Origin: an uncultured Blastocatellaceae bacterium
Lineage (GTDB): Bacteria; Acidobacteriota; Blastocatellia; Pyrinomonadales; Pyrinomonadaceae
Assembly (NCBI GenBank): GCA_964486055.1
Contig: CAZALE010000002.1
Span: 289,048 to 353,047, forward strand
Length of the DNA: 64,000 nucleotides
Direction: 5' to 3'
Shown one piece after another: positions 10,414 to 62,474 of this stretch. The position numbers and the translations under genes were made by a program. The stretch's first letter is position 1, and the number at the start of each line of letters is the position of its first letter. The notes below the pieces were generated by a model. It was given only the letters and a program-made list of their open reading frames with translations, was not told the DNA's origin and ran no database searches.

Positions 10414-11496
10414 TTAATCTGTATTTCTCGACATCATTTTTTCGAGCAAATGGGCAACGTAGCTTACTACAGAAATGACTCGAGCGTATTCGATTCTAGT
10501 TGGACCTACGACTCCTAAAGCCCCCATTGCTTGACTTCCACCGACGCGGTAGGAAGCCGTGATAAGAGCACAATTTTGCATGGAAGGGACGAGATTTTCT
10601 TTGCCTATCACAATCCTCACATCTTTTTTATCCGAAACATCATTAGATAGGCATTCATTTAAAATCTTTACTAATCTGGTCTTCTCTTCGAAAGTTTTGA
10701 GAAGTTCTCGGAGTTCCTGAAAGTTAAAGTCAGGTTTAGACAGGATGTTTGCAGTTCCTTCCACGTACACTTGCCCTAAATCATCGCTTTCAATGCTTTG
10801 CGAGCAAAGAATGATTGCCGTCTGCAGCAATCTATCAAAAAGCGCACGTTCCTCATGCATTAGACGAAGAATCTCATTCCGAATGGTAGATAGGCTTTTC
10901 CCTTTAAATTCAGTGTTCAAATATCTGGCTGTCCGATTTAGCTCTTCCTGAGTAAAGTTTTCCTCGAGTCTTATTATCTTGTTGTGCACTATGTTGGGTG
11001 CAGAAATCATCATGACTAAAATCTTTTTGTCAGCCAAACTAAAGAATTCGATGTGCTCTAGAGTATCACTGGACATGCTTGGGGAAACAACTATGCCAAC
11101 ATTTTCAGATATTGAAGAGAGAACAGATGATGTACGCTCCATCAATCTTTCAGGATCATCGGTATTAAGCAATTTTTCATTTATTAGCTGCAAATCATCT
11201 TCGGTTAACCTCAAAACTCCCAGCAGGTTGTCAACATAAAATCTATAGCCTTTATCGGTAGGGATACGCCCAGCTGAGGTGTGCGGCTGTTCCAGGTAGC
11301 CTGCTTCTTCTAATTCACCCATGATGTTACGAATAGTTGCTGGGCTCCAACCGTGTGCTCTCGAAAATTTATCGGCAACAGTCTTCGATCCGACAGGCTC
11401 ACCAGTAACAAGATGCTCGTTGATTACGGCATGCAGTACAGCTTGACCACGAACATCGGGAATACCGACTTTTTGTCTTCTTTCACGACTAAGCAT
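10414..11496 (-). CDS. hrcA: heat-inducible transcription repressor HrcA
   Basis: N-terminal wHTH region GEPVGSKTVADKF...ATIRNIMGELEEAGYLEQPHTSAGRIPTDKGYRFYVD. The ORF track starts at 11544. I prefer the second Met (11496, MLSRERRQK...) because a -35/-10 pair lies between the two. Confidence 0.9.
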   Translation of the reverse strand: MLSRERRQKVGIPDVRGQAVLHAVINEHLVTGEPVGSKTVADKFSRAHGWSPATIRNIMGELEEAGYLEQPHTSAGRIPTDKGYRFYVDNLLGVLRLTEDDLQLINEKLLNTDDPERLMERTSSVLSSISENVGIVVSPSMSSDTLEHIEFFSLADKKILVMMISAPNIVHNKIIRLEENFTQEELNRTARYLNTEFKGKSLSTIRNEILRLMHEERALFDRLLQTAIILCSQSIESDDLGQVYVEGTANILSKPDFNFQELRELLKTFEEKTRLVKILNECLSNDVSDKKDVRIVIGKENLVPSMQNCALITASYRVGGSQAMGALGVVGPTRIEYARVISVVSYVAHLLEKMMSRNTD

Positions 11497-11534
11497 GTTT
11501 GTTAGTTCCCCAGAGCCTAGTCTATGCTTTTTTC

Positions 11535-11563
11535 TTGATAACATTTTATTAATTCAAAGTCAA
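11535..11563 (-). promoter_or_regulatory. sigma-70-like promoter candidate for hrcA operon
   Basis: Minus-strand TTGACT (11563-11558), a 17-nt spacer, then TATCAA (11540-11535), about 40 nt upstream of ATG 11496. Pattern match only. Confidence 0.35.
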
Positions 11564-11569
11564 CAAAAA

Positions 11570-12262
11570 ATGTTAAACCTAAACGACAGAATAAAAAGGT
11601 TTTACGAAAATGCGTTGAGCGATTTTGAGATCAAGTCACTGCATATCTCATTTTATCCATATAAAACTCTGAGACATACGATAAAAGTAAGCAACGCAGA
11701 GGTTAGAATCGTTTTATCAGATGTAATGATGGATGCACCGTTAGATGTTCACCATGCTCTGGCAGAGATACTAGTGGCTAAGTTAACTAAAAAGAAACCC
11801 TCGATGAAATATCGTAGAATCTACTCTGATTTTGTTAAATCTCATGACAAAATCCATGAAATTTTATCAAAACGTGTAAGAATCAACCCAGCAGGAAAGG
11901 TTTTCAACTTAGAGAGAATTTTTAATAGACTAAACGAATTATATTTCGATGGACAATTGGAAAAGCCACTTTTAAGCTGGTCTAACCGCAAGTCTTTCAG
12001 AAAATTGGGGCATTATGACCCTCATCGAAAAATTATAGTAATCAGCAAAACACTAGACGATGCATTCGTGCCTGAATACGTAATAGAATTCTTGGTCTAT
12101 CACGAGATGCTACACATCAAACATCCAAGCATCGATACCAACTCTAAAACAATATTCCACACGCCAGAATTTCGCAGTGACGAGAGAAAATTTCCCTATT
12201 TTGCTGAGGCTATGAATTGGCTGGAGAAACATCGAAACTGGCTAAGAGACAAATCCTTATGA
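11570..12262 (+). CDS. SprT-like / DUF45 (YgjP)-like HExxH zinc metalloprotease
   Basis: LSWSNRKSFRKLGHYDPHRKIIVISKTL...EFLVYHEMLHIKH (HExxH), followed by HTPEFRSDERKFPYF..WL. This is the layout of the SprT/DUF45 minimal metallopeptidase families. Start taken at Met26 (11570) of the track ORF. Confidence 0.6.
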   Translation: MLNLNDRIKRFYENALSDFEIKSLHISFYPYKTLRHTIKVSNAEVRIVLSDVMMDAPLDVHHALAEILVAKLTKKKPSMKYRRIYSDFVKSHDKIHEILSKRVRINPAGKVFNLERIFNRLNELYFDGQLEKPLLSWSNRKSFRKLGHYDPHRKIIVISKTLDDAFVPEYVIEFLVYHEMLHIKHPSIDTNSKTIFHTPEFRSDERKFPYFAEAMNWLEKHRNWLRDKSL

Positions 12263-26420: not shown

Positions 26421-27410
26421 ATGTTCATTGGCGATGCAATAACAGATTTAATCAATAAGTGCGAGACTCAGATCCGTGAGATATTTTCGTCTTGCCATCA
26501 AAAAAAACCTAATTACAGTGTCGATTATCAACAATTTAGGGAAAGGATAGAAAAAACCGTCAGAAAATACTTGCTCACAGAGGAGCAAGTTCCAACGTTA
26601 GAGGAAGTCAAGGATCTCATAAATCAGATACATGCCGACGACCTGTATTTAGCTCTTGCCTGTATAAATGGAGACGAAAGTGCATGGTGGGATTTTGTCA
26701 CAGAATACCAGCCCTACTTAGAGAAATTGGCAAGAAGTCTCACCAATACTCACATAGATGCTGAAGAGATAGTAGCTAATCTTTACACGGAGCTTTATGG
26801 TACATCAATTTATGAGGGCCGCAGGAACTCTAAATTTCTTACCTATAGTGGACGAGGCACTCTTCGTGGCTGGCTAAGAACTATAGTATGGCATTCAACC
26901 GTCGATCTTCATCGAGCAGGTGAGGGAATTGTCTCTTTAGAGGAAATAGTGCAGCAAGTTGGCGAAGGAGTTGCGCATACTATAATGAATAAAACTAAAG
27001 AAGATACAGAACAAGAGATGGCAGAAGCACTAAACCGTAAGCGCTATTTAAAAATAGCGCTACAAACAATAGAGAAAGTTTTTGCAAGCCTCGAAGATTA
27101 CGAGAAACTAATCTTGTATTACTACCATGTGGAAAATTTAAAATTACGCGAGATTGCAAAAATCGTTGAGTTACCATCCTCTCCCTTAAGAAATTTTTTT
27201 AAACGATCTTCCGAAAAATCTGCCAGAGTTCACGAATCAACCATAATGCGCTGGCTTGATAAAACGTATGGCAAAATACTTAAGCTATTCCGCGCTGAGT
27301 TAGCTAAGGCTCAAGAATTAAAACTAAAAGAGATAGAAATTTGCTTAGAGCTAATAGCTCAAGAATTACCTGAATTCTCATTGGAAGATAAGCTTTCTAA
27401 ATATACGTAG
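26421..27410 (+). CDS. sigma-70 family (ECF-like) RNA polymerase sigma factor with extended N-terminus and insertions
   Basis: Region-2-like DLYLALACINGDESAWWDFVTEYQPYLEKLA...AEEIVANLYTEL. Region-4-like YEKLILYYYHVENLKLREIAKIVE...STIMRWLDK. At 329 aa it is longer than typical ECF sigmas. Confidence 0.6.
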   Translation: MFIGDAITDLINKCETQIREIFSSCHQKKPNYSVDYQQFRERIEKTVRKYLLTEEQVPTLEEVKDLINQIHADDLYLALACINGDESAWWDFVTEYQPYLEKLARSLTNTHIDAEEIVANLYTELYGTSIYEGRRNSKFLTYSGRGTLRGWLRTIVWHSTVDLHRAGEGIVSLEEIVQQVGEGVAHTIMNKTKEDTEQEMAEALNRKRYLKIALQTIEKVFASLEDYEKLILYYYHVENLKLREIAKIVELPSSPLRNFFKRSSEKSARVHESTIMRWLDKTYGKILKLFRAELAKAQELKLKEIEICLELIAQELPEFSLEDKLSKYT

Positions 27411-27498
27411 ATAATCTACATGATTAAATTCATAAGTCTTTGAGAAAATAGCAAAATTTTTACTCAGAGTATGTCGTTTGTTTTGGAGAAAAGAGAAG

Positions 27499-27924
27499 AT
27501 GAATGAAGAAACGATTAAAAAACTTTTGGAGGTTTATCTCGTAAGCTCCTCAGCGATTCCTGAAAATGAAGATCACCTGGATGACGATGTATTAAGCGCT
27601 TTCATCGAAGGGACTTTAAGCAAACGCGAATTAAAACCTATAATATCGCATCTTGTAAAATGCTCATTCTGCCGGCATTTAGCTGCAGAGATTATCAAGT
27701 TCGATTCACTCATTTCTGAAGAATCGATATCACAATCAGCAAAACCCACAAAATTTTCAGAAACCATAAAAAAACTTCTCTCCGAACTCTTTCAAACTGC
27801 CCCAACTCCAATAGAAGCATTTGAGGAAAAAAAAATAAATGACCCGCAGCCTTTTACCATATTATTTGAGAAAAACATCGATAACGATGACGAAGTTATT
27901 GATAACGATAAAGAAGATAGATGA
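27499..27924 (+). CDS. putative anti-sigma factor (zf-HC2 type), no TM segment
   Basis: H-x3-C-x2-C motif (HLVKCSFCRH) about 60 aa from the N-terminus. Lies immediately downstream of the sigma gene. GGAGAA SD before ATG 27499. Acidic C-terminal tail. Confidence 0.55.
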   Translation: MNEETIKKLLEVYLVSSSAIPENEDHLDDDVLSAFIEGTLSKRELKPIISHLVKCSFCRHLAAEIIKFDSLISEESISQSAKPTKFSETIKKLLSELFQTAPTPIEAFEEKKINDPQPFTILFEKNIDNDDEVIDNDKEDR

Positions 27925-49645: not shown

Positions 49646-50104
49646 ATGAATGTAGCCAGAAAAGTATCAAAGTCAGGATACGATATAACACCAATCGATG
49701 AACAAACAAGGCTGCGGTTAGCTTCCACACTTGATGAAGAATCTTACAGGGTCCTAATAAATCATGGTACAGAGCCCCCTTTCTGCGGTAATTTAACCTA
49801 TAACAAAGAGGAAGGAACTTACGCCTGTAAGCTTTGCGGACTGCCCTTATTTTCATCAGATTCTAAATTTGATTCTGGGACTGGTTGGGCCTCTTTCTAT
49901 GCCCCTTTCGATGAAGAGCACATAAAATATTATCGTGATCTCTCATTTGGGATGGTCAGAATAGAAATAAGATGCGCTAGATGTGACGGACATCAGGGAC
50001 ATGTTTTCAATGATGGGCCACCACCTACCGGTCTACGTTACTGCGTCAACTCTGCCTCCTTAGAATTTTTTCCAAAAGAAAGCCAGATTCCACAAAAAAT
50101 TTAA
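49646..50104 (+). CDS. msrB: peptide-methionine (R)-S-oxide reductase
   Basis: Two CxxC zinc pairs (CKLCG, CARCDGH), GTGWASF, and the RYCVNS catalytic Cys motif. Confidence 0.9.
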
Positions 50105-51450
50105 CTCTTTTCCACATTAATTCCCAAAGCCTTCATTCGACGATATAGATGACTTCTATCGATTCCCATTAGCTCCGCAGCCTTTGATATATTTCCACCA
50201 GCCTCTGCGATCTTTTGCTCTATGAATCTTCTCTGAAATTCATCAATGGCTTGTTTGAAAGATGGAAAACGCAAGCTCGAAGGTAGCGTAAAATCGGTTG
50301 GGAATGCTGGTAAATCCTTAGCTGCTATTTTATCCTTTGCAACCGTTATAACTATTCTCTCGATTGTATTCTTCAACTCTCTAACATTTCCGGGCCAACT
50401 ATATTCCTGCATTGCCTCTACAGCGTCCTTGAGAAATTCCTTGGGTCTTTTACCGTATGCAGCAGAAAATTTATGGTTAAAATGCTCGATTAGCAAAGGT
50501 ATGTCCTCGACTCTCTCGCGCAATGGTGGTATTTGAAATGGAATTACGTTCAAACGATAAAAAAGATCATGACGAAAATCCCCGGACTCGATCAATTCAT
50601 CGAGATCTTTGTTAGTTGCAGAAATAATTCGCACATCTACTTTCACTGGTGTATTACTTCCGAGTGGTTCAAACCTTCCCTCTTCGAGGACACGCAACAT
50701 TTTTGCCTGCATTCTCGGCGACATATCACCTATTTCATCCAAAAATAATGTACCTCCATCAGCAATTTCAAATTTACCCTTACGAGATTGCGTGGCTCCC
50801 GAAAAAGCTCCTTTAACATACCCAAAAAGCTCTGATTCGATGAGATCCTCCGGAATAGCTGCAGAATTAATCTCGACAAATGGAGCATGTTTTCTTTTGG
50901 ACTGATTATGAATCGCTCTTGCAACTAATTCCTTTCCCGTGCCAGATTCACCAAATATTAAGACTCTACCATCCGTATCAGCAACTATCGATATCTGCTT
51001 CCTTAAGGCTCTCATAGCTACTGACTCCCCTATCATCACATACTCTTGATTTAAGCTTTGCTCTAACTCGGCATTTTTTATCTCTAATTGATGTGTTCGA
51101 ATCGCGTTTCTGACTGTCAGTACAGTTTTTGCAAGCGAGAGAGGCTTTTCTATGAAATCATAAGCTCCGAGCTTGACTGCAGCGACAGCAGTTTCTATGT
51201 TTCCGTGTCCAGAGATAACCACAACAGCTGAGTCATTGCCTTGCTCACGTAAAAGCTTGAGGGTCTTCAGTCCATCGATGCCTGGCAACCATATATCAAG
51301 CAGAATGCATGCATAGTTCTTTACCTCAGCGAGTTTCAAGCATTCCTCACCAGATGAAACTGAGTCCACCTCATATCCCTCATCTTCAAGCACTGCGCGC
51401 AACGATTCTTGTATCTTTACTTCATCATCTACAATCAAAACTTTTTGCAT
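50101..51450 (-). CDS. sigma-54-dependent response regulator (NtrC family: REC-AAA+-Fis HTH)
   Basis: REC ([12 protein letters not shown]), Walker [15 protein letters not shown] (GAFTGA variant), ESELFGY, and a C-terminal HTH ([21 protein letters not shown]). Confidence 0.9.
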
Positions 51451-51560: not shown

Positions 51561-52040
51561 ATGCTGGGGCTAAAAATCATGACTAATGAAATCCCACAAC
51601 GAAGATATGTAAGATTTTCTCTTGATATTCCTGCAGTCCGTCGCGATGAGAAATGGCAGAAAATCAAGACCCTTATACATCAAATAAGCCTCGGTGGTTG
51701 TCTTATTAGCTGGAGTGACGATATCTTCCCAGGTGATGACTTTCGCCTGGAGATACCTCTCCCAAACGGTAACTACCTTCCACTACAAGCACGCGCTCTA
51801 TATAAATTTCCGGGTAAAGGAATCGGTGCTAAATTTTTAGACATAACTGAATTCGAACAAAAACTGCTAGCAGATATAATCATTGATCGTTTGGAAAAAG
51901 AAGGATTACCATTTGCCGTAGACCCCTTCACACGCCCGCCTGCATACATAAAAGACTCAGACAAAGCCAATCAAAATGATCCTAGAATGGTACAAGAGAA
52001 AACAGTAGAACAGATTCTATCATCCGAAACTTCTAGCTAG
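51561..52040 (+). CDS. PilZ-domain protein (candidate c-di-GMP receptor)
   Basis: RRYVR (RxxxR) followed about 30 aa later by QISLGGC (a [D/N]xSxxG variant). Alternative start at ATG 51579. Confidence 0.6.
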   Translation: MLGLKIMTNEIPQRRYVRFSLDIPAVRRDEKWQKIKTLIHQISLGGCLISWSDDIFPGDDFRLEIPLPNGNYLPLQARALYKFPGKGIGAKFLDITEFEQKLLADIIIDRLEKEGLPFAVDPFTRPPAYIKDSDKANQNDPRMVQEKTVEQILSSETSS

Positions 52041-55043: not shown

Positions 55044-55940
55044 ATGGAAGACATAGCGATAGACGTCAGAAAGGATGATAGTATAGTTTTGCGTGAGAAA
55101 ATTAGATCTTACGTCGAACTCACCAAACCAAGAATTGCATTCATGCTAGTTCTAACAGCAGCTGCCGGATTTTACCTGGGATCTACAAATTTTGACTTGT
55201 TGCTTTTCTTGAGATCAATCTTAGGAATAACGCTTCTTGCTTTCGGAACTGCGGCACTTAACCAATATATCGAACGCAAGAGTGATGCCTTAATGGAAAG
55301 AACTGCTTCTCGGCCTCTACCTTCAGGAAAGCTAGCTGGAAAAGAAGCCTTGTTATTTGGAATTGTTCTCTGTCTCTTGGCTGAGGCAATACTTTTTATT
55401 TTAGTCAATACAATGACTGGCATCCTCGGGCTTTTAGTTATATTGGGATACGTATTTCTCTATACACCATTGAAGAGAGTGACTACGCTCTCTACAGTTG
55501 TAGGTGCCTTCCCTGGAGCTATGCCGCCTCTTATGGGTTGGACTTCAGCCGCAGATCAAATCTCAGTTCAAGCATGGATACTATTCGCCATTATATTTTT
55601 CTGGCAGTTTCCCCATTTTCTTTCGATAGCTTGGATATACAGAGATGAATACTCGAAGGCTGGCATCAAAATGCTACCGGTAGTCGATAAAGATGGAAAA
55701 TTGACGGTTAGACAAGTCATTATCTTTACTCTTTTACTGATAGCAACAAGTATCATGCCTTTCTTACTAGGGATGACGGGAATCATCTACCTAATGGCCG
55801 CCATTAGCTTTGGGGCTTACTTTTTATACTGTTCATTAGAGATGGCACGGAAGAAATCTGTCGCCGCTGCAAGAAAGGTTTTAATTGCTTCAGTCTTATA
55901 CTTGCCGTTAATTTTTGCATTGATGGTAATAAACCACTGA
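55044..55940 (+). CDS. ctaB: protoheme IX farnesyltransferase (heme O synthase)
   Basis: UbiA-family polytopic protein with the NQYIERKSDALMERTASRPLPSG motif. Confidence 0.9.
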   Translation: MEDIAIDVRKDDSIVLREKIRSYVELTKPRIAFMLVLTAAAGFYLGSTNFDLLLFLRSILGITLLAFGTAALNQYIERKSDALMERTASRPLPSGKLAGKEALLFGIVLCLLAEAILFILVNTMTGILGLLVILGYVFLYTPLKRVTTLSTVVGAFPGAMPPLMGWTSAADQISVQAWILFAIIFFWQFPHFLSIAWIYRDEYSKAGIKMLPVVDKDGKLTVRQVIIFTLLLIATSIMPFLLGMTGIIYLMAAISFGAYFLYCSLEMARKKSVAAARKVLIASVLYLPLIFALMVINH

Positions 55941-56014: not shown

Positions 56015-56746
56015 ATGGAGATTCAAACAGGACATGTAGACATCGAACGAGAGGAAAAAGTAAGAACACATAAGAGACGAAGCTCTGGTTTGACAGGTGG
56101 TGGAGGCGGAAACAATGGCAGAAAAAAAGGCGGTGGAGGCGGAGGAGATAACTTCGATGATAAAAACCCAATAAACGAAGCTGAACAATTCCGCCCTAAT
56201 AAACTACGCATTGGAATGTGGTTTTTACTCGTAGTCGTGCTAATGACCTTCGGAGGTCTTATCAGCGCTTATCTCGTAATAGCTACTAATAAAACTGCCG
56301 AATGGAAGCCATTTAATCTACCATTTCAAGTGTGGATAAGCACTTTCTTAATTCTAGCCAGCACGTTTACTATCGAGATGTCTAGACGTAAGCTGTTTTT
56401 AAATCAGCAAAAATCAGCGCGAGATTGGTTACTAGCAACTACTATCTTGGGGGCTATGTTTATCGCTTCTCAGCTTATGCTATGGTTCAGGCTATGGAAA
56501 ATGGGTGTTTATCTACAAGGTAATCCATATGCAGGCCTTTTCTACATACTAACAATTGCTCATGCTATACATGTCATCGGAGGCATAATAGGCCTCGGAT
56601 ATATAGTTTTACGAGCTTGGAATAAAACCGCGAATACTGAAGAAATATTGAGGCGTCAAACCTCTGCTACAGTTGTCAGTTGGTATTGGCACACAATGGA
56701 TGGACTATGGCTCATTTTACTCGGGCTCTTGGTGTTCTATAAATAA
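56015..56746 (+). CDS. ctaE: heme-copper (cytochrome c) oxidase subunit III with Gly-rich N-terminal extension
   Basis: AHAIHVIGGIIGL and WYWHTMDGLWLILLGLLVF blocks. The N-terminus has GLTGGGGGNNGRKKGGGGGGD. Confidence 0.8.
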   Translation: MEIQTGHVDIEREEKVRTHKRRSSGLTGGGGGNNGRKKGGGGGGDNFDDKNPINEAEQFRPNKLRIGMWFLLVVVLMTFGGLISAYLVIATNKTAEWKPFNLPFQVWISTFLILASTFTIEMSRRKLFLNQQKSARDWLLATTILGAMFIASQLMLWFRLWKMGVYLQGNPYAGLFYILTIAHAIHVIGGIIGLGYIVLRAWNKTANTEEILRRQTSATVVSWYWHTMDGLWLILLGLLVFYK

Positions 56747-56921: not shown

Positions 56922-57473
56922 ATGAATCAATCACCAAGTTTATTTTCAGAGCGAAAATCTAATAGATGGATAGATATAGTTTCAGTAGTTGTTCTGATAG
57001 TTGTAATAGTTTTGCTTTCCATGCAAGATAAGTTTTATTTCGGAGAATGGACTAGATCAATTCCTCATGCTATCGGTATAATAAACACCTTGACTACCAT
57101 ATCCTTGATAGCTGGCTTGATTTTCATTAAGCAAGGTAAGATAAACTTGCATCGTAATGCAATGCTTTTCTCGTTCCTCCTAGGAAGTTTATTTTTAGTT
57201 CTATATGTCACGTACCATCTTTCCAATCGGCCGATGTATTTCTCTGGACAGGGATTTATACGTTATCTATATTTCTTCATACTCATTAGTCATGTGGCTC
57301 TATCAATTGTAGTATTACCCCTGGTCTTAAGAGCACTACTCTTCGCATTAATTGATGACTTCGTCAGGCACAAGAAAATCGTGAAATTTGCCTACCCGAT
57401 TTGGTTATACGTCTCCATCACGGGAGTGCTCGTTTACCTATTCAATAACATCCTCTATCAGTCGAATCGTTAA
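56922..57473 (+). CDS. DUF420 (CtaM/YozB-like) membrane protein associated with oxidase clusters
   Basis: Four-TM ~180-aa protein with His-containing helices (HRNAM, ISHVALS). Oxidase-cluster context. Confidence 0.6.
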   Translation: MNQSPSLFSERKSNRWIDIVSVVVLIVVIVLLSMQDKFYFGEWTRSIPHAIGIINTLTTISLIAGLIFIKQGKINLHRNAMLFSFLLGSLFLVLYVTYHLSNRPMYFSGQGFIRYLYFFILISHVALSIVVLPLVLRALLFALIDDFVRHKKIVKFAYPIWLYVSITGVLVYLFNNILYQSNR

Positions 57474-57502: not shown

Positions 57503-57531
57503 TTGCATGAGTAAATATTTGGTGTTATATT
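57503..57531 (+). promoter_or_regulatory. sigma-70-like promoter candidate for the riboswitch transcript
   Basis: TTGCAT (57503-57508), a 17-nt spacer, then TATATT (57526-57531). Lies about 50 nt upstream of the first conserved aptamer block. Confidence 0.5.
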
Positions 57532-57579
57532 GAAACTAGATTTTTGAATCCGGTCTTTGCTGAGTAAAGACAAGGATAG

Positions 57580-57770
57580 AAAAAATCGCTGAAGTCGCCT
57601 AGGAAAACCAACGACTATTGAGATACTTGAAAGGCGACACGGGGGACCCAAAAGTTTTGCAACCGCTGATTGCAAAACACTGATGGGGCGCAGCGTTACC
57701 TTGTAACGCGGGAAACTTCTTCGTTCCTAGCCCGACAGCTAACCTCGTAAGCATCGAAGAAGGATACGAA
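57580..57770 (+). promoter_or_regulatory. c-di-AMP riboswitch aptamer (ydaO-yuaA class)
   Basis: The conserved blocks, as I recall them from B. subtilis ydaO, appear in the right order: AAUCGCUGAAGUC (57584-57596), CACGGGGGACCCA (57638-57650), GAUGGGGCG (57682-57690), CCCGACAGCUAACCUCGUAAGC (57731-57752). Supporting stems: 57594-57600/57632-57638 (GTCGCCT/AGGCGAC), 57653-57661/57670-57678 (GTTTTGCAA/TTGCAAAAC), 57693-57698/57703-57708 (CGTTAC/GTAACG). Confidence 0.8.
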
Positions 57771-57791
57771 CAAGTTTTCCGTTAAACAGGT

Positions 57792-57817
57792 GCGCGATTC
57801 TTCTTCGCGCCTTTTTT
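57792..57817 (+). terminator. riboswitch expression-platform terminator
   Basis: GCGCGA-ttcttct-TCGCGC followed by C+TTTTTT. CGAAGAAG (57755-57762, the 3' end of the aptamer) is complementary both to CTTCTTCG inside the aptamer (57716-57723) and to CTTCTTCG in the terminator loop/arm (57800-57807). This is a classic mutually exclusive switch. Confidence 0.6.
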
Positions 57818-57842
57818 ATCGGTAACTTATCTTCTCTAAAAG

Positions 57843-57880
57843 AAAAATTCCGCACTTTTTGTTGCGGAATTTTTCTTTTT
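57843..57880. terminator. bidirectional rho-independent terminator (ends the nuclease operon; would also stop plus-strand read-through)
   Basis: AAAAATTCCGCA-ctttttgt-TGCGGAATTTTT: a 12-bp stem with T-runs on both strands, 44 nt past the minus-strand stop at 57918. Confidence 0.75.
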
Positions 57881-57917
57881 CAACCCATAAACTCAAGTTC
57901 TAATATTGAGACTAGGC

Positions 57918-59783
57918 TCAATTTGTTTTTTTATTCAACGGATCTAACGACAAATAAACTACCGGTGGGTCATGATCTGAAATCCTCTCCGGTCGAGTTT
58001 CATCATTGGAATAAATCTTAGGAAAATCAGCGTTTAACCTAGCGTAACCGAACTTCAATGCTCTTTCCTGAGCTGGACCATTCAACAAAATATGATCCAA
58101 TACTTGCGCTGATCCCTCAAAAACATAGGAATACCGGTTTAACGGTTCAAGAAAATTCACTAAATCTATCAGTCCTGTCGGGAAGGATGTCTTCGATGGA
58201 GCCAAAACGTTTTGGCTTGGATTACCGATTAAAATACCTATTAAGTCGTTATATCCATCGCTAAACTGAAAACTGTTGAAATCGCCACCAACTACGATTA
58301 TCTCATTTGGATTAGACTTTTGACGTTCAACTAAATAATTAGCTAACCATTCTGCCTGTCGGCGCCGCTGCTGACGTACATATTCCCCATTTTCTGGATC
58401 ATCAATTCCAAGATACGATTTAAAATGATTAACAATAACAGTAAGTACCGTAGGATTCTTTTCATCCAGAATCTCAACCTTGACTAAAAGTGGCGGACGA
58501 TCATAAAGATAACCCGTCCTATTGCCAAAATTAATCTTCTCGTTTTTAGCTAATTGCTGAACCTCTAGTACTTTTACACGAGATGACTTTATTAAAAATC
58601 CCACGTCGATACCTCGACCGTCATTTCCTTCTTCCAAAATTGCCTCGTATTTCGGATCAGGTTGATTAGCTTTAATCGCGTCACTATTTATCTTCTCCGC
58701 TAGCTTCCTGAGTACTTTTATGTTTTCAACCTCTTCAACTCCTAAGATGTCTGGATAAGACAAGACTTCGCGAATCGCCAATGAGGCCTTGTTCAGCCTG
58801 ACTCGGAAGATCTCTTTAGGAAGTATCGTTTCATCCTGAATATTTTCTGAGTTTTTCTCATCATCAAAAAAATTTTCTAGGTTGAAAAAGCCAATGGTCG
58901 TTTCCCTAGAACCAGCAGGACTTACCTTTATGAACTTTCTTTGTCCCTCTAAAACTGGTGTTTGACTTTTAGTATCAAGCAAAAGAGTATAAGCTCGCCG
59001 CGAATAATCTATAACCCCAATTAAGCTTCTGACTGTCATACCAACTGCGACATCCAGAGGCTTAGATCCTTCTTGAACGTCACTGTCAACTCTCAAGATC
59101 TCTGGATTCATGTCAAAAATTGGGATGTTCTGTGGCAACTTATCAACTAACCAAGTTAAAACACTCACACCTGGCTCACGAAATGGTCTCGGAGTTTTAG
59201 GTAATATTCCATAAAACACCCCATCTGAAACTATCGCGCCACTTTTCTTATCCTCAAATCCACCAGTCGGGCCAATAACTATCAAGCTGTCTACCTTCAC
59301 TCTCATTCCCTCAAATCGCTCAAGTTGATCTATTTTCCCCTGAGGATTTAGGTCATTTAAGGTCAACGTTTGAGGGGTCGGTAGAGGATTATTTCGAGAT
59401 AACACTTTTATTCCCGGGTTTATTATTTCTGTTATCGTGAGAAAATAGCGTTCATTGCGAGGCCGATACTCAGTGACAGTGCCTGTAACCTCAATTAAAT
59501 TACCTACAGCAATCCCTGGAGGTATTACATCGTTAGTAAAAACGTAAATCCCCTCAGAGGTTTTAGGATTATCATCTACCTCATTGTCAGGAACTTGAAC
59601 GTAAAACCCCCTCTGCGATATGAAAGTAACGATTCCTCTGGTAGTAACAGTTCTTCCATCATACGGTGAAATGTTTCCTTCACCCTGGATCTGATGAATC
59701 GGAACTATGCCTCTCTGTGCTATACCCAGCAAATGAATAGTCAGTATGAAAAAACCACCAACAAAAAATCTTGAAATTCTCAT
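57918..59783 (-). CDS. secreted ExeM/NucH-like extracellular nuclease (N-terminal OB-like domain + endonuclease/exonuclease/phosphatase domain)
   Basis: Signal peptide. IHQIQGEGNISPYDGRTVTTRGIVTFISQRGFYVQ (the ExeM/NucH N-terminal signature). EEP blocks FNLENFFD, VVGGDFNS and ISDHDPPVV. Confidence 0.8.
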   Translation of the reverse strand: MRISRFFVGGFFILTIHLLGIAQRGIVPIHQIQGEGNISPYDGRTVTTRGIVTFISQRGFYVQVPDNEVDDNPKTSEGIYVFTNDVIPPGIAVGNLIEVTGTVTEYRPRNERYFLTITEIINPGIKVLSRNNPLPTPQTLTLNDLNPQGKIDQLERFEGMRVKVDSLIVIGPTGGFEDKKSGAIVSDGVFYGILPKTPRPFREPGVSVLTWLVDKLPQNIPIFDMNPEILRVDSDVQEGSKPLDVAVGMTVRSLIGVIDYSRRAYTLLLDTKSQTPVLEGQRKFIKVSPAGSRETTIGFFNLENFFDDEKNSENIQDETILPKEIFRVRLNKASLAIREVLSYPDILGVEEVENIKVLRKLAEKINSDAIKANQPDPKYEAILEEGNDGRGIDVGFLIKSSRVKVLEVQQLAKNEKINFGNRTGYLYDRPPLLVKVEILDEKNPTVLTVIVNHFKSYLGIDDPENGEYVRQQRRRQAEWLANYLVERQKSNPNEIIVVGGDFNSFQFSDGYNDLIGILIGNPSQNVLAPSKTSFPTGLIDLVNFLEPLNRYSYVFEGSAQVLDHILLNGPAQERALKFGYARLNADFPKIYSNDETRPERISDHDPPVVYLSLDPLNKKTN

Positions 59784-61555
59784 TGCGTGTCTTTCCTTCT
59801 TTTTATTATCTCACGGGTATTTTTTGGCACATTAGAGAAGAAGTCATATCCGGTAAGTGTCTCTATGTACTTGACGGTAACCCTGTATTGTCTCCATGGA
59901 GCGTTCTGATTTACCGGAGGCTGATTTGGAACTAGTATGGCAATTGTGCGTGTTCCTTTATTAATGCGCTGCAGATCATTATCACCATTTGGCAACACCA
60001 AGACAACCTTCCATGTGTATTGCGGCACGACGATGCGCCCCTGGGCTATAGTCCCAGCGTTTCCGTAACCACCAGCAAACATGTATAACTCGTAACCTTG
60101 AGTAGCCAATGATCTGCAATAGTTTTCAAAATCTTCCCATGGTCCCTGATTATTAGCTGGCAGTTGTGGAAGAAAATTCGTCATTAAAAACGTGGCTGAG
60201 TTATCCGCAATTGAGCGGGTTCTGTCGCCAGATGGGCACATGTGTCCACGATCATAGCCTGATCCGCTGTAATCTTCAGGCACAACCTGATACCATCCCG
60301 CCGGTAAATCTGGATCCGGACGAAAATCGTCTTGCCGTGGGGCGCTTCCTAGCCAACTCTGATCAAGTCTCCATGCAACCCAATTTGGAGTGGCGCGGCT
60401 TCGATTATAAGAGAGAGTGTATTGAGGTTTTACCATCAGGTAATTGTTTTCGTTTGACACGTCGGCGCTGGCATTGCTGGGATTTCCCAAAAGCAAAGGA
60501 TTGTCACTCGGAGATGCCGCCGATATATTTAGATTTATAGTAAGCGATACAGACCTTCCTTGTGCATCACTAACAGAAACCGGAATGAACCTTTGTCCAC
60601 TTGATGAATTATTGGGCAATGTGTATCTAAATGAAAAAACGTTATCGCCAGCAGTTGTGTCGCCATTTGTTCCATCGTCAAAAAACTGTTGATTCGACGT
60701 TCCGCCTACGGAAGTAAGATCACCAGAAACGTTAATTCCAGTGCTTGGCGGAGAAGTAGCCGGAACAACATTAACATAAAATGTAACCACTCCACCCGGC
60801 GTACTAGTGCTGGGGCTTACGGAACCTCCTGCCTGCAAAACTCCTCCTAAATTACAAGAGTTGAATGGACTTGATGTGTTCCTCGGATTTGGAGCAGCAA
60901 TCGTAAAGTCGGAGGCATTAACATCAGTATCGACACATCCACCTCCATTTCGCAATCCGGCCGTGGTTCCACTCAAATTGTTAGTTCTTTGTCCTTCAAA
61001 ACAGGAAGCAGAACTTCCGTACCCAACAAAATCAACAATAGATGGATCGTTTGGACAGGTAGAGGCAGGCAGCTGCACAGTCGAACTTACCAATGCTAAT
61101 TTGCCAGTTGTGGATGAAAGATTGGGGATAAAGGTGTTCGTGCCGACTGTGACCGGAGGAGCCGTCATATCAGGTGATGGTAAACTAACTCCACCGGCAC
61201 CATTACCCGCATATTGAATAAGATAATACTGTCCCGGCTGTAGAGTTACGTTACTTAATGGAGTGACTAGCCAATTACTTCCAGTAGCTGAAGCATATTG
61301 CACTGACCATCCATTCAAACTAATTGGCTGATTGCCTCTATTGAAAAGTTCAACGAAGTCATTGGCATACTGCGAACTTGATGAAACACCACCACCTCCG
61401 TAAAACTGGCTTATTACGACATTCTGAGATACCAAAACAGCCTTTCGCTCATCATCGACGGCTTTTTCTTGTCTATCTCCAGCAACGTGATAACGGTCCG
61501 TAATTACTAAAAAACTTAAAACACTCAAAAGTACAAAAAGAACAGGTTTTCTCAT
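59780..61555 (-). CDS. secreted DNA/RNA non-specific endonuclease (beta-beta-alpha-Me, DRGH type) with N-terminal lamin-tail domain
   Basis: Signal peptide. LTD-like VISQFYGGGG...NDFVELFNRGNQPISLNGWSVQY...LQPGQYYLIQ. Ser/Thr/Gly-rich Ig-like middle region. Catalytic YDRGHMCPSGDR and downstream NFLPQ..ANN. ATGA overlap with the next gene. Confidence 0.85.
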   Translation of the reverse strand: MRKPVLFVLLSVLSFLVITDRYHVAGDRQEKAVDDERKAVLVSQNVVISQFYGGGGVSSSSQYANDFVELFNRGNQPISLNGWSVQYASATGSNWLVTPLSNVTLQPGQYYLIQYAGNGAGGVSLPSPDMTAPPVTVGTNTFIPNLSSTTGKLALVSSTVQLPASTCPNDPSIVDFVGYGSSASCFEGQRTNNLSGTTAGLRNGGGCVDTDVNASDFTIAAPNPRNTSSPFNSCNLGGVLQAGGSVSPSTSTPGGVVTFYVNVVPATSPPSTGINVSGDLTSVGGTSNQQFFDDGTNGDTTAGDNVFSFRYTLPNNSSSGQRFIPVSVSDAQGRSVSLTINLNISAASPSDNPLLLGNPSNASADVSNENNYLMVKPQYTLSYNRSRATPNWVAWRLDQSWLGSAPRQDDFRPDPDLPAGWYQVVPEDYSGSGYDRGHMCPSGDRTRSIADNSATFLMTNFLPQLPANNQGPWEDFENYCRSLATQGYELYMFAGGYGNAGTIAQGRIVVPQYTWKVVLVLPNGDNDLQRINKGTRTIAILVPNQPPVNQNAPWRQYRVTVKYIETLTGYDFFSNVPKNTREIIKRRKDTQ

Positions 61556-61730: not shown

Positions 61731-62474
61731 ATGAAGAATCTTCTAATTCTAAGTTTTTCGATATTATTGATCTACGTGACCGATGTTATAAGTCAAACGA
61801 AAAAGCCGAAGCCCAGAAATGCACCAGAGACGAGAGTCCGAGTGGACAGGCTTTTCGTGGTTATAGATGAAAGGCTTGCAGTGATTAGAGAAAAGCCAAG
61901 CCTGTACGCCACTCCGATACAAAGAATGAGAAGAGGCAGATTAATAACGTTATCAGGAGACATAAAACAAGATGAACATGGAGTAAGATTCTATAGAGTT
62001 CAACTTTCAAGGCTACAAGGTTGGGTACAAGTAGAGGCATTAGCAAGCATTCAATCGAAAGTTGATGAAAAGCGCCTTGCTAGATTAATTCAAGGATCCT
62101 CAGGCTTTGATAAAATAGAGCGAACTGCTATCTTTTTGAAGCATTATATAAATTCTGATCTGAGACCTGCTGTTTTGCTTTTGTTTGGTGATTTGGTCGA
62201 GGAGGTAGCCGCAAGCCTAAGTAAAGACGCAAATAGAAGACTTGACGAAAAGGAAATGCAAGCCTCCGATGCTCCAATAGAAAGCTTTTATCTAAGCTAC
62301 AGCGGATTAGACAGATATAGACGTCTCGGCATTACCTTTCTCTTTAATAAAAAAACAAAGACATATCATTACGATGGACAAAGCTGGAAAGAACTACTCC
62401 AAAGATTCCCGAATACTAACGAAGCAAAAGAGGCGAAGAAAAGACTAGAAAACCTCCAATCAAAAATGCAATAG
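61731..62474 (+). CDS. hypothetical exported protein
   Basis: Signal sequence (LLILSFSILLIYVTDVISQ). Basic, with a possible SH3b-like segment (GVRFYRVQLSRLQGWVQVEAL). No catalytic motif. Confidence 0.6.
   Translation: MKNLLILSFSILLIYVTDVISQTKKPKPRNAPETRVRVDRLFVVIDERLAVIREKPSLYATPIQRMRRGRLITLSGDIKQDEHGVRFYRVQLSRLQGWVQVEALASIQSKVDEKRLARLIQGSSGFDKIERTAIFLKHYINSDLRPAVLLLFGDLVEEVAASLSKDANRRLDEKEMQASDAPIESFYLSYSGLDRYRRLGITFLFNKKTKTYHYDGQSWKELLQRFPNTNEAKEAKKRLENLQSKMQ

Follow-up and report, generated by a model that had tools for sequence, protein, structure and literature searches.

A conserved c-di-AMP riboswitch without a downstream gene in Pyrinomonadaceae: a candidate small-RNA gene with a non-coding tail behind the switch

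We analysed a stretch of 64,000 nucleotides (the window, whose first letter is position 1) from contig CAZALE010000002.1 of an uncultured Blastocatellaceae bacterium, assigned in GTDB to the Pyrinomonadaceae. On the plus strand, between a gene cluster for cytochrome oxidase assembly and two convergent nuclease genes, the window carries a riboswitch of the ydaO/yuaA class, whose ligand is cyclic di-AMP (c-di-AMP). The element has a promoter-like site of its own, an expression platform with a terminator (T1), a short conserved tail and a second terminator (T2), and is followed by no gene that it could regulate. Its parts are listed below, each with the evidence from which it was assigned.

57503-57531, plus strand: promoter-like site, with -35 box TTGCAT (57503-57508), a 17-nt spacer and extended -10 TGtTATATT (57523-57531); sequence, kept in relatives
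57539-57587, plus strand: 5' leader stem-loop, specific to the clade of the window; minimum free energy (MFE) fold
57577-57768, plus strand: full-length c-di-AMP (ydaO/yuaA class) aptamer; match to RF00379 and compensatory changes in 63 aligned homologues
57716-57723, plus strand: 5' strand of the pseudoknot, CUUCUUCG, in an aptamer hairpin loop; sequence and RF00379 alignment
57755-57765, plus strand: switching strand CGAAGAAGGAU, which can pair with 57716-57723 (pseudoknot) or 57797-57807 (antiterminator); sequence and folding
57792-57817, plus strand: T1, the platform terminator GCGCGA-UUCUUCU-UCGCGC (stem 57792-57810) with U-run; terminator scan
57818-57842, plus strand: non-coding tail with invariant UCUUCUC (57830-57836) and UAAAAG; alignments
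57843-57874, both strands: T2, a strong terminator in both directions, AAAAAUUCCGCA / UGCGGAAUUUUU, with a U-run on either strand; MFE fold

The covariance model of Rfam family RF00379 matched the plus strand at 57577-57768 over its whole length (1-134 of 134) with a score of 70.9 bits (E 1.9e-14), the gathering score of the family being 38 bits, and RF00379 was the sole Rfam family detected across the 64 kb window. An earlier reading of this DNA, made from its letters without database searches (the sequence-only reading), had named the same class on the same strand, and the model bears it out. In c-di-AMP riboswitches a hairpin loop is known to form a pseudoknot with the 3' tail. Here the loop strand CUUCUUCG (57716-57723) is complementary to CGAAGAAG (57755-57762), a pairing that matches the loop and 3'-tail consensus of the Rfam alignment. 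The 8-mer CTTCTTCG occurs twice, at 57716-57723 and again at 57800-57807, the second copy lying within the T1 hairpin.

In the promoter-like site the -10 box TATATT occupies 57526-57531, with the TG at 57523-57524, two bases upstream, and transcription would be expected to start near 57538. A simple promoter scan of the window did not list the site at 57503-57531, because TTGCAT agrees with TTGACA at only three of six positions; alignments of relatives preserve the arrangement TTGCnA-17-TGnTATATT. When the platform was folded freely, an antiterminator of 11 bp (57755-57765 with 57797-57807) won at -19.0 kcal/mol, and when the switching strand was blocked, T1 formed at -18.2 kcal/mol. The modelled platform has the architecture of a standard ligand-OFF transcriptional switch, and free and constrained folds gave the same switch logic in most of the related loci folded (L066, L019, L025, L003, L041, L002 and L078). 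These results agree with the sequence-only reading on several points: the promoter-like TTGCAT-17-TATATT is present (its activity being predicted) and has the additional TG, the terminator scan places a terminator at 57792-57817, and sequence and folds both support the OFF-switch design seen in the alternative pairing of the 8-mer at 57755-57762 with 57716-57723 or 57800-57807.

The genes on both sides of the element are as follows.

55044-55940, plus strand: UbiA-family prenyltransferase (CtaB-like); Pfam
56015-56746, plus strand: cytochrome oxidase subunit III (COX3) protein; Pfam
56922-57473, plus strand: DUF420 (CtaM-like), last gene of the UbiA/CtaB-COX3-DUF420 cluster; PF04238, E 5.7e-40
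57918-59783, minus strand: EEP-family nuclease, convergent; Pfam
59780-61555, minus strand: Endonuclease_NS+LTD protein, convergent; Pfam

DUF420 is the CtaM family, which is needed for the function of aa3-type oxidases (PMC4958251). Neither reading of the sequence nor the terminator scan found a terminator between the DUF420 stop codon and the promoter of the RNA. Behind the aptamer, the stretch from 57768 to the stop codon of the nuclease gene (57918) contains no plus-strand open reading frame (ORF) of at least 20 aa, and the next plus-strand coding sequence begins at 61731. The statement of the sequence-only reading that the switch has no gene to regulate is thereby confirmed, and Pfam identifies the two converging genes as the nuclease operon that it had described.

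Relatives were collected in two ways. A protein search with DUF420 against GTDB contigs, with one genome per species, is independent of the RNA; its best matches (54-57% identity) were three Pyrinomonadaceae metagenome-assembled genomes, and Bacteroidota came next. In each of the three Pyrinomonadaceae genomes DUF420 is immediately followed, in the same orientation, by an RF00379 aptamer (66-82 bits) with the same tail, and no plus-strand gene stands behind the aptamer in any of these three loci. No such aptamer was found in the Bacteroidota DUF420 loci tested (L004, L005, L007), and the link to DUF420 is therefore lineage-specific. In two of the three Pyrinomonadaceae loci a convergent ORF of ~565 aa (M1-aminopeptidase-like by eye) comes next, and in the third a transposase-like ORF is followed by a convergent PilT-like gene. 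The four intergenic regions, when aligned, are conserved well past the aptamer and share the -35 and extended -10, T1 with its U-run, a stretch that closes with the invariant TCTTCTC(A/T)AAG, an A-run and T2.

The second collection was made from metagenomes with the DNA pattern CAGCTAACCTCGTA-N4-12-GAAGAAG-N62-92-TCTTCTC, which covers the aptamer 3' end, the switching strand and the tail motif. It returned 65 loci, and since the pattern is independent of the flanking genes, the flanks provide an unbiased readout. By tblastn, almost every locus with enough upstream DNA has DUF420 immediately before the element and in the same orientation. Where enough downstream DNA was available, the next long ORF was in most cases convergent, starting 50-170 nt past the motif. 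Four loci (L021, L059, L070 and L078) have a plus-strand ORF downstream, more than 150 nt from the motif; by eye these ORFs are mutually unrelated (ScpA/B-like, thioredoxin-like, HTH-like and one without an assigned type) and, because T2 directly follows the motif, they lie beyond T2. No conserved downstream cargo gene on the plus strand was found in 68 related loci, and without exception T2 separates the switch from the convergent gene. Scores of ten further aptamers ranged from 64 to 78 bits (64-82 bits over the 13 relatives checked overall), the flanking DUF420 proteins across the locus set are 41-66% identical to that of the window, and no second aptamer copy was found in ~140 kb of flanks. 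Only the window, L023 and L065 have the nuclease neighbour, the DUF420 proteins of the latter two being 95% identical to that of the window, and the nuclease genes are outside the conserved unit. The sequence-only reading had asked whether the element is always an orphan and always convergent with nuclease genes; the first half of this question is answered in the affirmative, and the second holds for these three loci only.

By these flanks, the element is anchored to the upstream ctaB-cox3-DUF420 cluster, a point that the sequence-only reading had missed. Three loci at the same time indicate autonomy of the RNA gene. In L022 and L076 it is split from DUF420 by minus-strand genes that form a block of 2.9 kb, in L066 it does not adjoin DUF420 at all, and all three loci keep the promoter, aptamer and tail. 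The block (oriented ~1900-4500 in L022) holds four genes by eye, namely an alpha/beta hydrolase-like gene, a small membrane protein, an anti-sigma-like gene and an ECF sigma factor. In both loci a remnant that duplicates the 3' end of DUF420 (...GVVVYFMFYQLFPAK*) stands immediately before the RNA promoter, which suggests an insertion event with target duplication.

The neighbours beyond T2 are varied; the usual one is, by eye, an M1-aminopeptidase-like gene, and others include small membrane proteins of 124-137 aa, the nuclease operon, transposases and FG-GAP-repeat-like, deacetylase-like and ScpA/B-like genes. The DNA just after T2 is a rearrangement hotspot, reminiscent of the ends of small-RNA genes that serve for integration or recombination. 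In L003, the DNA that separates T2 from an ISAs1-like transposase ORF (11235-12239) includes a GC-rich part (10980-11110) containing several hairpins (gaacccgcgaagcgggt..., gcccgtgaaaacgggcgac...). This part gave no Rfam match reaching the gathering threshold and could be a structured RNA or a mobile-element end.

Structure and sequence constraint were assessed in an alignment of 63 distinct elements, pairwise identities being computed on 59 sequences of the main clade. The aptamer core blocks ACGGGGGA, GGGGCGAAGC and CCCGnCAGCUAACCUCG are invariant or nearly so, and CTTCTTC of the pseudoknot loop strand is invariant, though it lies outside the search pattern. RNAalifold recovered the helices of the aptamer as well as T2, and in 23 of its 47 predicted pairs both partners have changed; T2 is kept through compensatory changes at several pairs, and the T1 hairpin has three pairs changed on both sides in homologues. 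The bidirectional terminator that the sequence-only reading had drawn at 57843-57874 is supported in this way as well as by the MFE fold. Judged by score, compensatory helices, core nucleotides and pseudoknot, the aptamer belongs to RF00379, and binding of c-di-AMP is predicted. A permissive Rfam scan of one main-clade element gave nothing credible beyond RF00379. Pairwise identities of the segments were:

5' leader UGUUGAAAAC (near-invariant 5' end of the main clade): 0.93
tail between T1 and T2, search motif excluded: 0.90
T1 stem-loop: 0.81
whole aptamer: 0.80
variable hairpins of the aptamer: 0.62
T2 loop: 0.34
DNA after T2: 0.37

By this measure, sequence constraint on the tail exceeds that on much of the aptamer. 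The segment between T1 and T2, whose conservation the sequence-only reading had missed, has the invariant motif UCUUCUC(A/U)AAG. One-base insertions and deletions occur in the tail among relatives (in the length of the U-run and in the ATCC(A)G loop), and the alignments contain no start codon with a Shine-Dalgarno sequence there; the constraint is therefore not on coding, and a small ORF as cargo in the tail was rejected on these grounds.

The consensus of the main-clade tail, which is roughly 55 nt long, reads UUUGAUUUUUUUCAAC-AAAUCAAAC-GAGAC-AUCCA-GUCUUCUCAAAGAG-AAAAG-T2. It contains UUUUCAAC, the exact complement of the conserved 5' end of the RNA, GUUGAAAA, and the helix between the two closes the molecule in the MFE folds of all five diverse representatives that were folded. 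This closing helix is pairable in 96.5% of cells, and covariation cannot test it because both strands are invariant. In the window clade (the window, L023, L065 and partly L066) the tail is cut to 25 nt and keeps only AUCUUCUCUAAA(A/G)G ahead of T2, and the local stem-loop at 57539-57587 replaces the 5' strand of the main clade; L023 and L065 retain this stem-loop with a G.U to G-C change. In the window, UUUUUCAAC follows T2 (57866-57884), the same sequence that in the main clade follows T1 and complements the 5' end of the RNA; as L023 and L065 differ there (UUUUCCAGC), this is probably a coincidence.

The aptamer, the architecture of the element, its conservation and the lack of an ORF behind it can be read directly from the loci. 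On balance, and by a small measure, we favour the view that it is an autonomous small-RNA gene of ~280-345 nt, a c-di-AMP riboswitch with a non-coding cargo, whose tail is the likely effector in the read-through form. Among the options that the sequence-only reading had offered, the comparative data favour this one, a stand-alone ligand-binding small RNA. The RNA would be transcribed from its own promoter near 57538, with read-through from DUF420 also possible. In the c-di-AMP-bound state, the switching strand would be held by the pseudoknot (57716-57723 with 57755-57762), T1 would form, and termination near 57817 would yield a short form of ~280 nt in the window. With no ligand, the switching strand would pair with 57797-57807 in the 3' half of T1, and antitermination would let the polymerase read through to T2, near 57880, giving a long form of ~345 nt. 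Only this long form would carry the UCUUCUC(A/U)AAG tail, which might be active in trans through base pairing or protein binding, so that the effector would be on at low c-di-AMP. T2 probably ends the long isoform and also the convergent nuclease operon. We put forward more tentatively, at somewhat less than even confidence, that this is the first trans-acting regulatory RNA controlled by c-di-AMP, in which the read-through isoform, at low levels of the messenger, exposes a conserved UCUUCUC-containing tail for binding to mRNAs or to an RNA-binding protein. If this is true, Acidobacteria of the Pyrinomonadaceae type would possess a post-transcriptional c-di-AMP regulon, encoded beside cytochrome-oxidase assembly genes and possibly coordinated with them.

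Several observations weigh against the reading as an autonomous small-RNA gene. Transcription, the ligand response, the two isoforms and activity in trans are predictions from sequence and folding. The switch logic does not appear everywhere: in the main-clade loci L039 and L018 T1 persists in the MFE fold of either state, and L048 gives the same platform fold with and without the constraint. The T1 hairpin of the main clade is weak (7 bp including two G.U pairs, with a 13-nt loop), and termination may therefore be inefficient there. The tail helices together with the 5'/3' closing helix are 95% pairable, compared with ~47% for shifted controls, a figure that speaks of pairability only, and sequence variation in the tail helices is too low to show covariation. 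The metagenome loci were collected with a pattern that demands the UCUUCUC motif and are uninformative on relatives that do not have it. Finally, the searches for a target of the tail identified none in the DUF420 start, the start regions of the window or the flanks. In the window, the duplex of the tail motif with the DUF420 translation start reaches -14.3 kcal/mol, within the top 1% of controls; the pairing is good only in the window clade, the median control fraction over 40 loci being 0.28, and the DUF420 start was rejected as a target. Complementary 8-mers in ~344 kb of main-clade flanks numbered 84, with 73 expected, and had no conserved position. A scan of 247 candidate start regions in the window gave a best tail-motif pairing of -14.7 kcal/mol (z ~ -3.3, 11 contiguous pairs) at the following site.

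27478-27510, within a 148-aa ORF (27478-27924): best pairing site AAAGAGAAGAUG, overlapping a candidate start codon (27499)

This ORF comes just after a sigma-70-region-2 protein (26421-27410) and matched no Pfam family. The pairing lies within what multiple testing would be expected to produce and may be taken as a weak lead.

The main rival to a tail that acts as effector is a c-di-AMP sponge or buffer comparable to the merRNA of Bdellovibrio, that is, an abundant RNA which damps or stores the signal and in which the terminators, the pairing of the 5' and 3' ends and the tail serve only stability and the formation of the 3' end. An orphan cyclic-dinucleotide riboswitch without an ORF has its precedent in merRNA (PMC3627812), the extended -10 promoter looks strong, the RNA would gain stability from the helix between its 5' end and the tail and, in the window clade, from the 5' hairpin, and the empty searches for trans targets fit as well. 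However, a sponge requires the aptamer alone. It leaves unexplained why a predicted ligand-responsive antiterminator/terminator platform is present, and why the single-stranded UCUUCUC(A/U)AAG between the terminators is conserved (0.90, against 0.62 in the variable stems of the aptamer). We regard a sponge as unlikely, although it deserves to be taken seriously.

Less probable still, and in our opinion improbable, is that the element belongs to the 3' untranslated region (UTR) of the ctaB-cox3-DUF420 messenger. Read-through RNA would then carry the switch, and c-di-AMP would set the 3' end of the mRNA and hence its stability, linking the messenger to respiration. In its favour, the element shares its strand with an adjacent DUF420 gene in almost every locus, and no terminator lies between the two. 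Against it stand the promoter-like element conserved immediately upstream of the aptamer and the RNA genes that are intact 2.9 kb away from DUF420 (L022, L076) or elsewhere (L066). Since T1 and T2 both end the mRNA past the coding region, any effect on the upstream genes could come only through stability, and we know of no riboswitch that acts on upstream genes through stability alone.

The two remaining explanations, both raised by the sequence-only reading, fare poorly. A switch that gates antisense transcription of the nuclease operon, or polymerase collisions within it, would suit the convergent geometry of the window, with 100 nt from T1 to the nuclease stop codon, and antisense control by riboswitches has precedent in work cited within PMC3627812, but the conserved bidirectional T2 intervenes in every locus and outside the window, L023 and L065 the neighbour is another gene (M1-aminopeptidase-like, a small membrane protein, a transposase or other), which makes this explanation very improbable. 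Equally hard to credit is a relic that decays after loss or inversion of its cargo gene, or a tiny unannotated ORF as cargo: the window indeed has no downstream ORF, but every one of the 14 aptamer copies checked reaches 64-82 bits, conservation of promoter, platform and tail extends over loci whose DUF420 proteins have diverged as described, no locus retains a cargo gene, and the tail tolerates one-base indels and offers no start codon with a Shine-Dalgarno sequence.

Two side observations concern other genes of the window. The COX3-family protein (56015-56746) has a long glycine-rich low-complexity N-terminal extension, e.g., GGGGGNNGRKKGGGGGGD, which is kept in the Pyrinomonadaceae relatives L001-L003. 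About 5.5 kb from the c-di-AMP RNA gene, a PilZ-domain protein (51561-52040, plus strand) adjoins a sigma-54-dependent response regulator (50101-51450, minus strand); PilZ is a domain of the c-di-GMP-receptor type.

We found no literature report of an orphan, sponge-like or small-RNA-type c-di-AMP riboswitch, or of such a riboswitch in Acidobacteria or Blastocatellia, in a search whose coverage excluded most subscription journals. To our knowledge, all characterised c-di-AMP riboswitches act in cis on genes of K+ or osmolyte transport or of the cell wall. Classical members of RF00379 include the leaders of kimA (ydaO) and ktrAB (yuaA) in Bacillus subtilis. The Pyrinomonadaceae element shares with them the aptamer family, the pseudoknot strands and an OFF-type terminator/antiterminator platform. 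It differs in that it does not lie in the 5' UTR of a protein gene and has a non-coding segment of 25-55 nt and a second terminator behind the switch; its host is acidobacterial, and the genes beside it are concerned with oxidase assembly and not with K+, osmolytes or the cell wall. It is not a classical cis-regulatory riboswitch, because the downstream gene that defines one is absent.

Riboswitch RNAs have been proposed as regulators in trans before. SreA and SreB of Listeria and the SAM-I riboswitch/small RNA of Desulfovibrio are reportedly terminated riboswitch transcripts that act in trans and still control a downstream gene in cis. Regulation in trans is thus shared as a proposal, whereas the Pyrinomonadaceae element is without any cis cargo gene. 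The merRNA of Bdellovibrio bacteriovorus is an orphan c-di-GMP-I riboswitch RNA without a conserved downstream ORF, massively expressed, conserved only within Bdellovibrio and proposed to be a sponge for the messenger (PMC3627812). Both RNAs can be read as stand-alone molecules built on an orphan cyclic-dinucleotide sensor; the one described here differs in messenger and aptamer (c-di-AMP), in its distribution over ~65 distinct loci and in its conserved extra tail.

In EutX/Rli55 of Enterococcus and Listeria, an adenosylcobalamin (AdoCbl) riboswitch belongs to a non-coding RNA with its own promoter; bound ligand stabilises a terminator where the aptamer ends and so leads to a short form that lacks the site which sequesters EutV, and without ligand a longer form with this extra functional segment is made (PMC5821096). 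The short and long isoforms that we propose would follow the same logic, which is predicted here from sequence and folding. Ligand and aptamer class differ, and so does the tail: that of EutX is an ANTAR (EutV) site, whereas the hairpins of the Pyrinomonadaceae tail are unlike ANTAR dual hexaloops. If the proposal is true, c-di-AMP signalling would extend to an RNA output in trans, or to buffering of the messenger by RNA, in the Acidobacteria, a dominant and poorly studied soil phylum, and the family offers ~65 natural sequence variants. A third ligand class would join the riboswitch-gated non-coding RNAs, next to AdoCbl (EutX/Rli55) and c-di-GMP (merRNA). By analogy, the Pyrinomonadaceae RNA would work most like EutX/Rli55, and it resembles merRNA as an orphan sensor.

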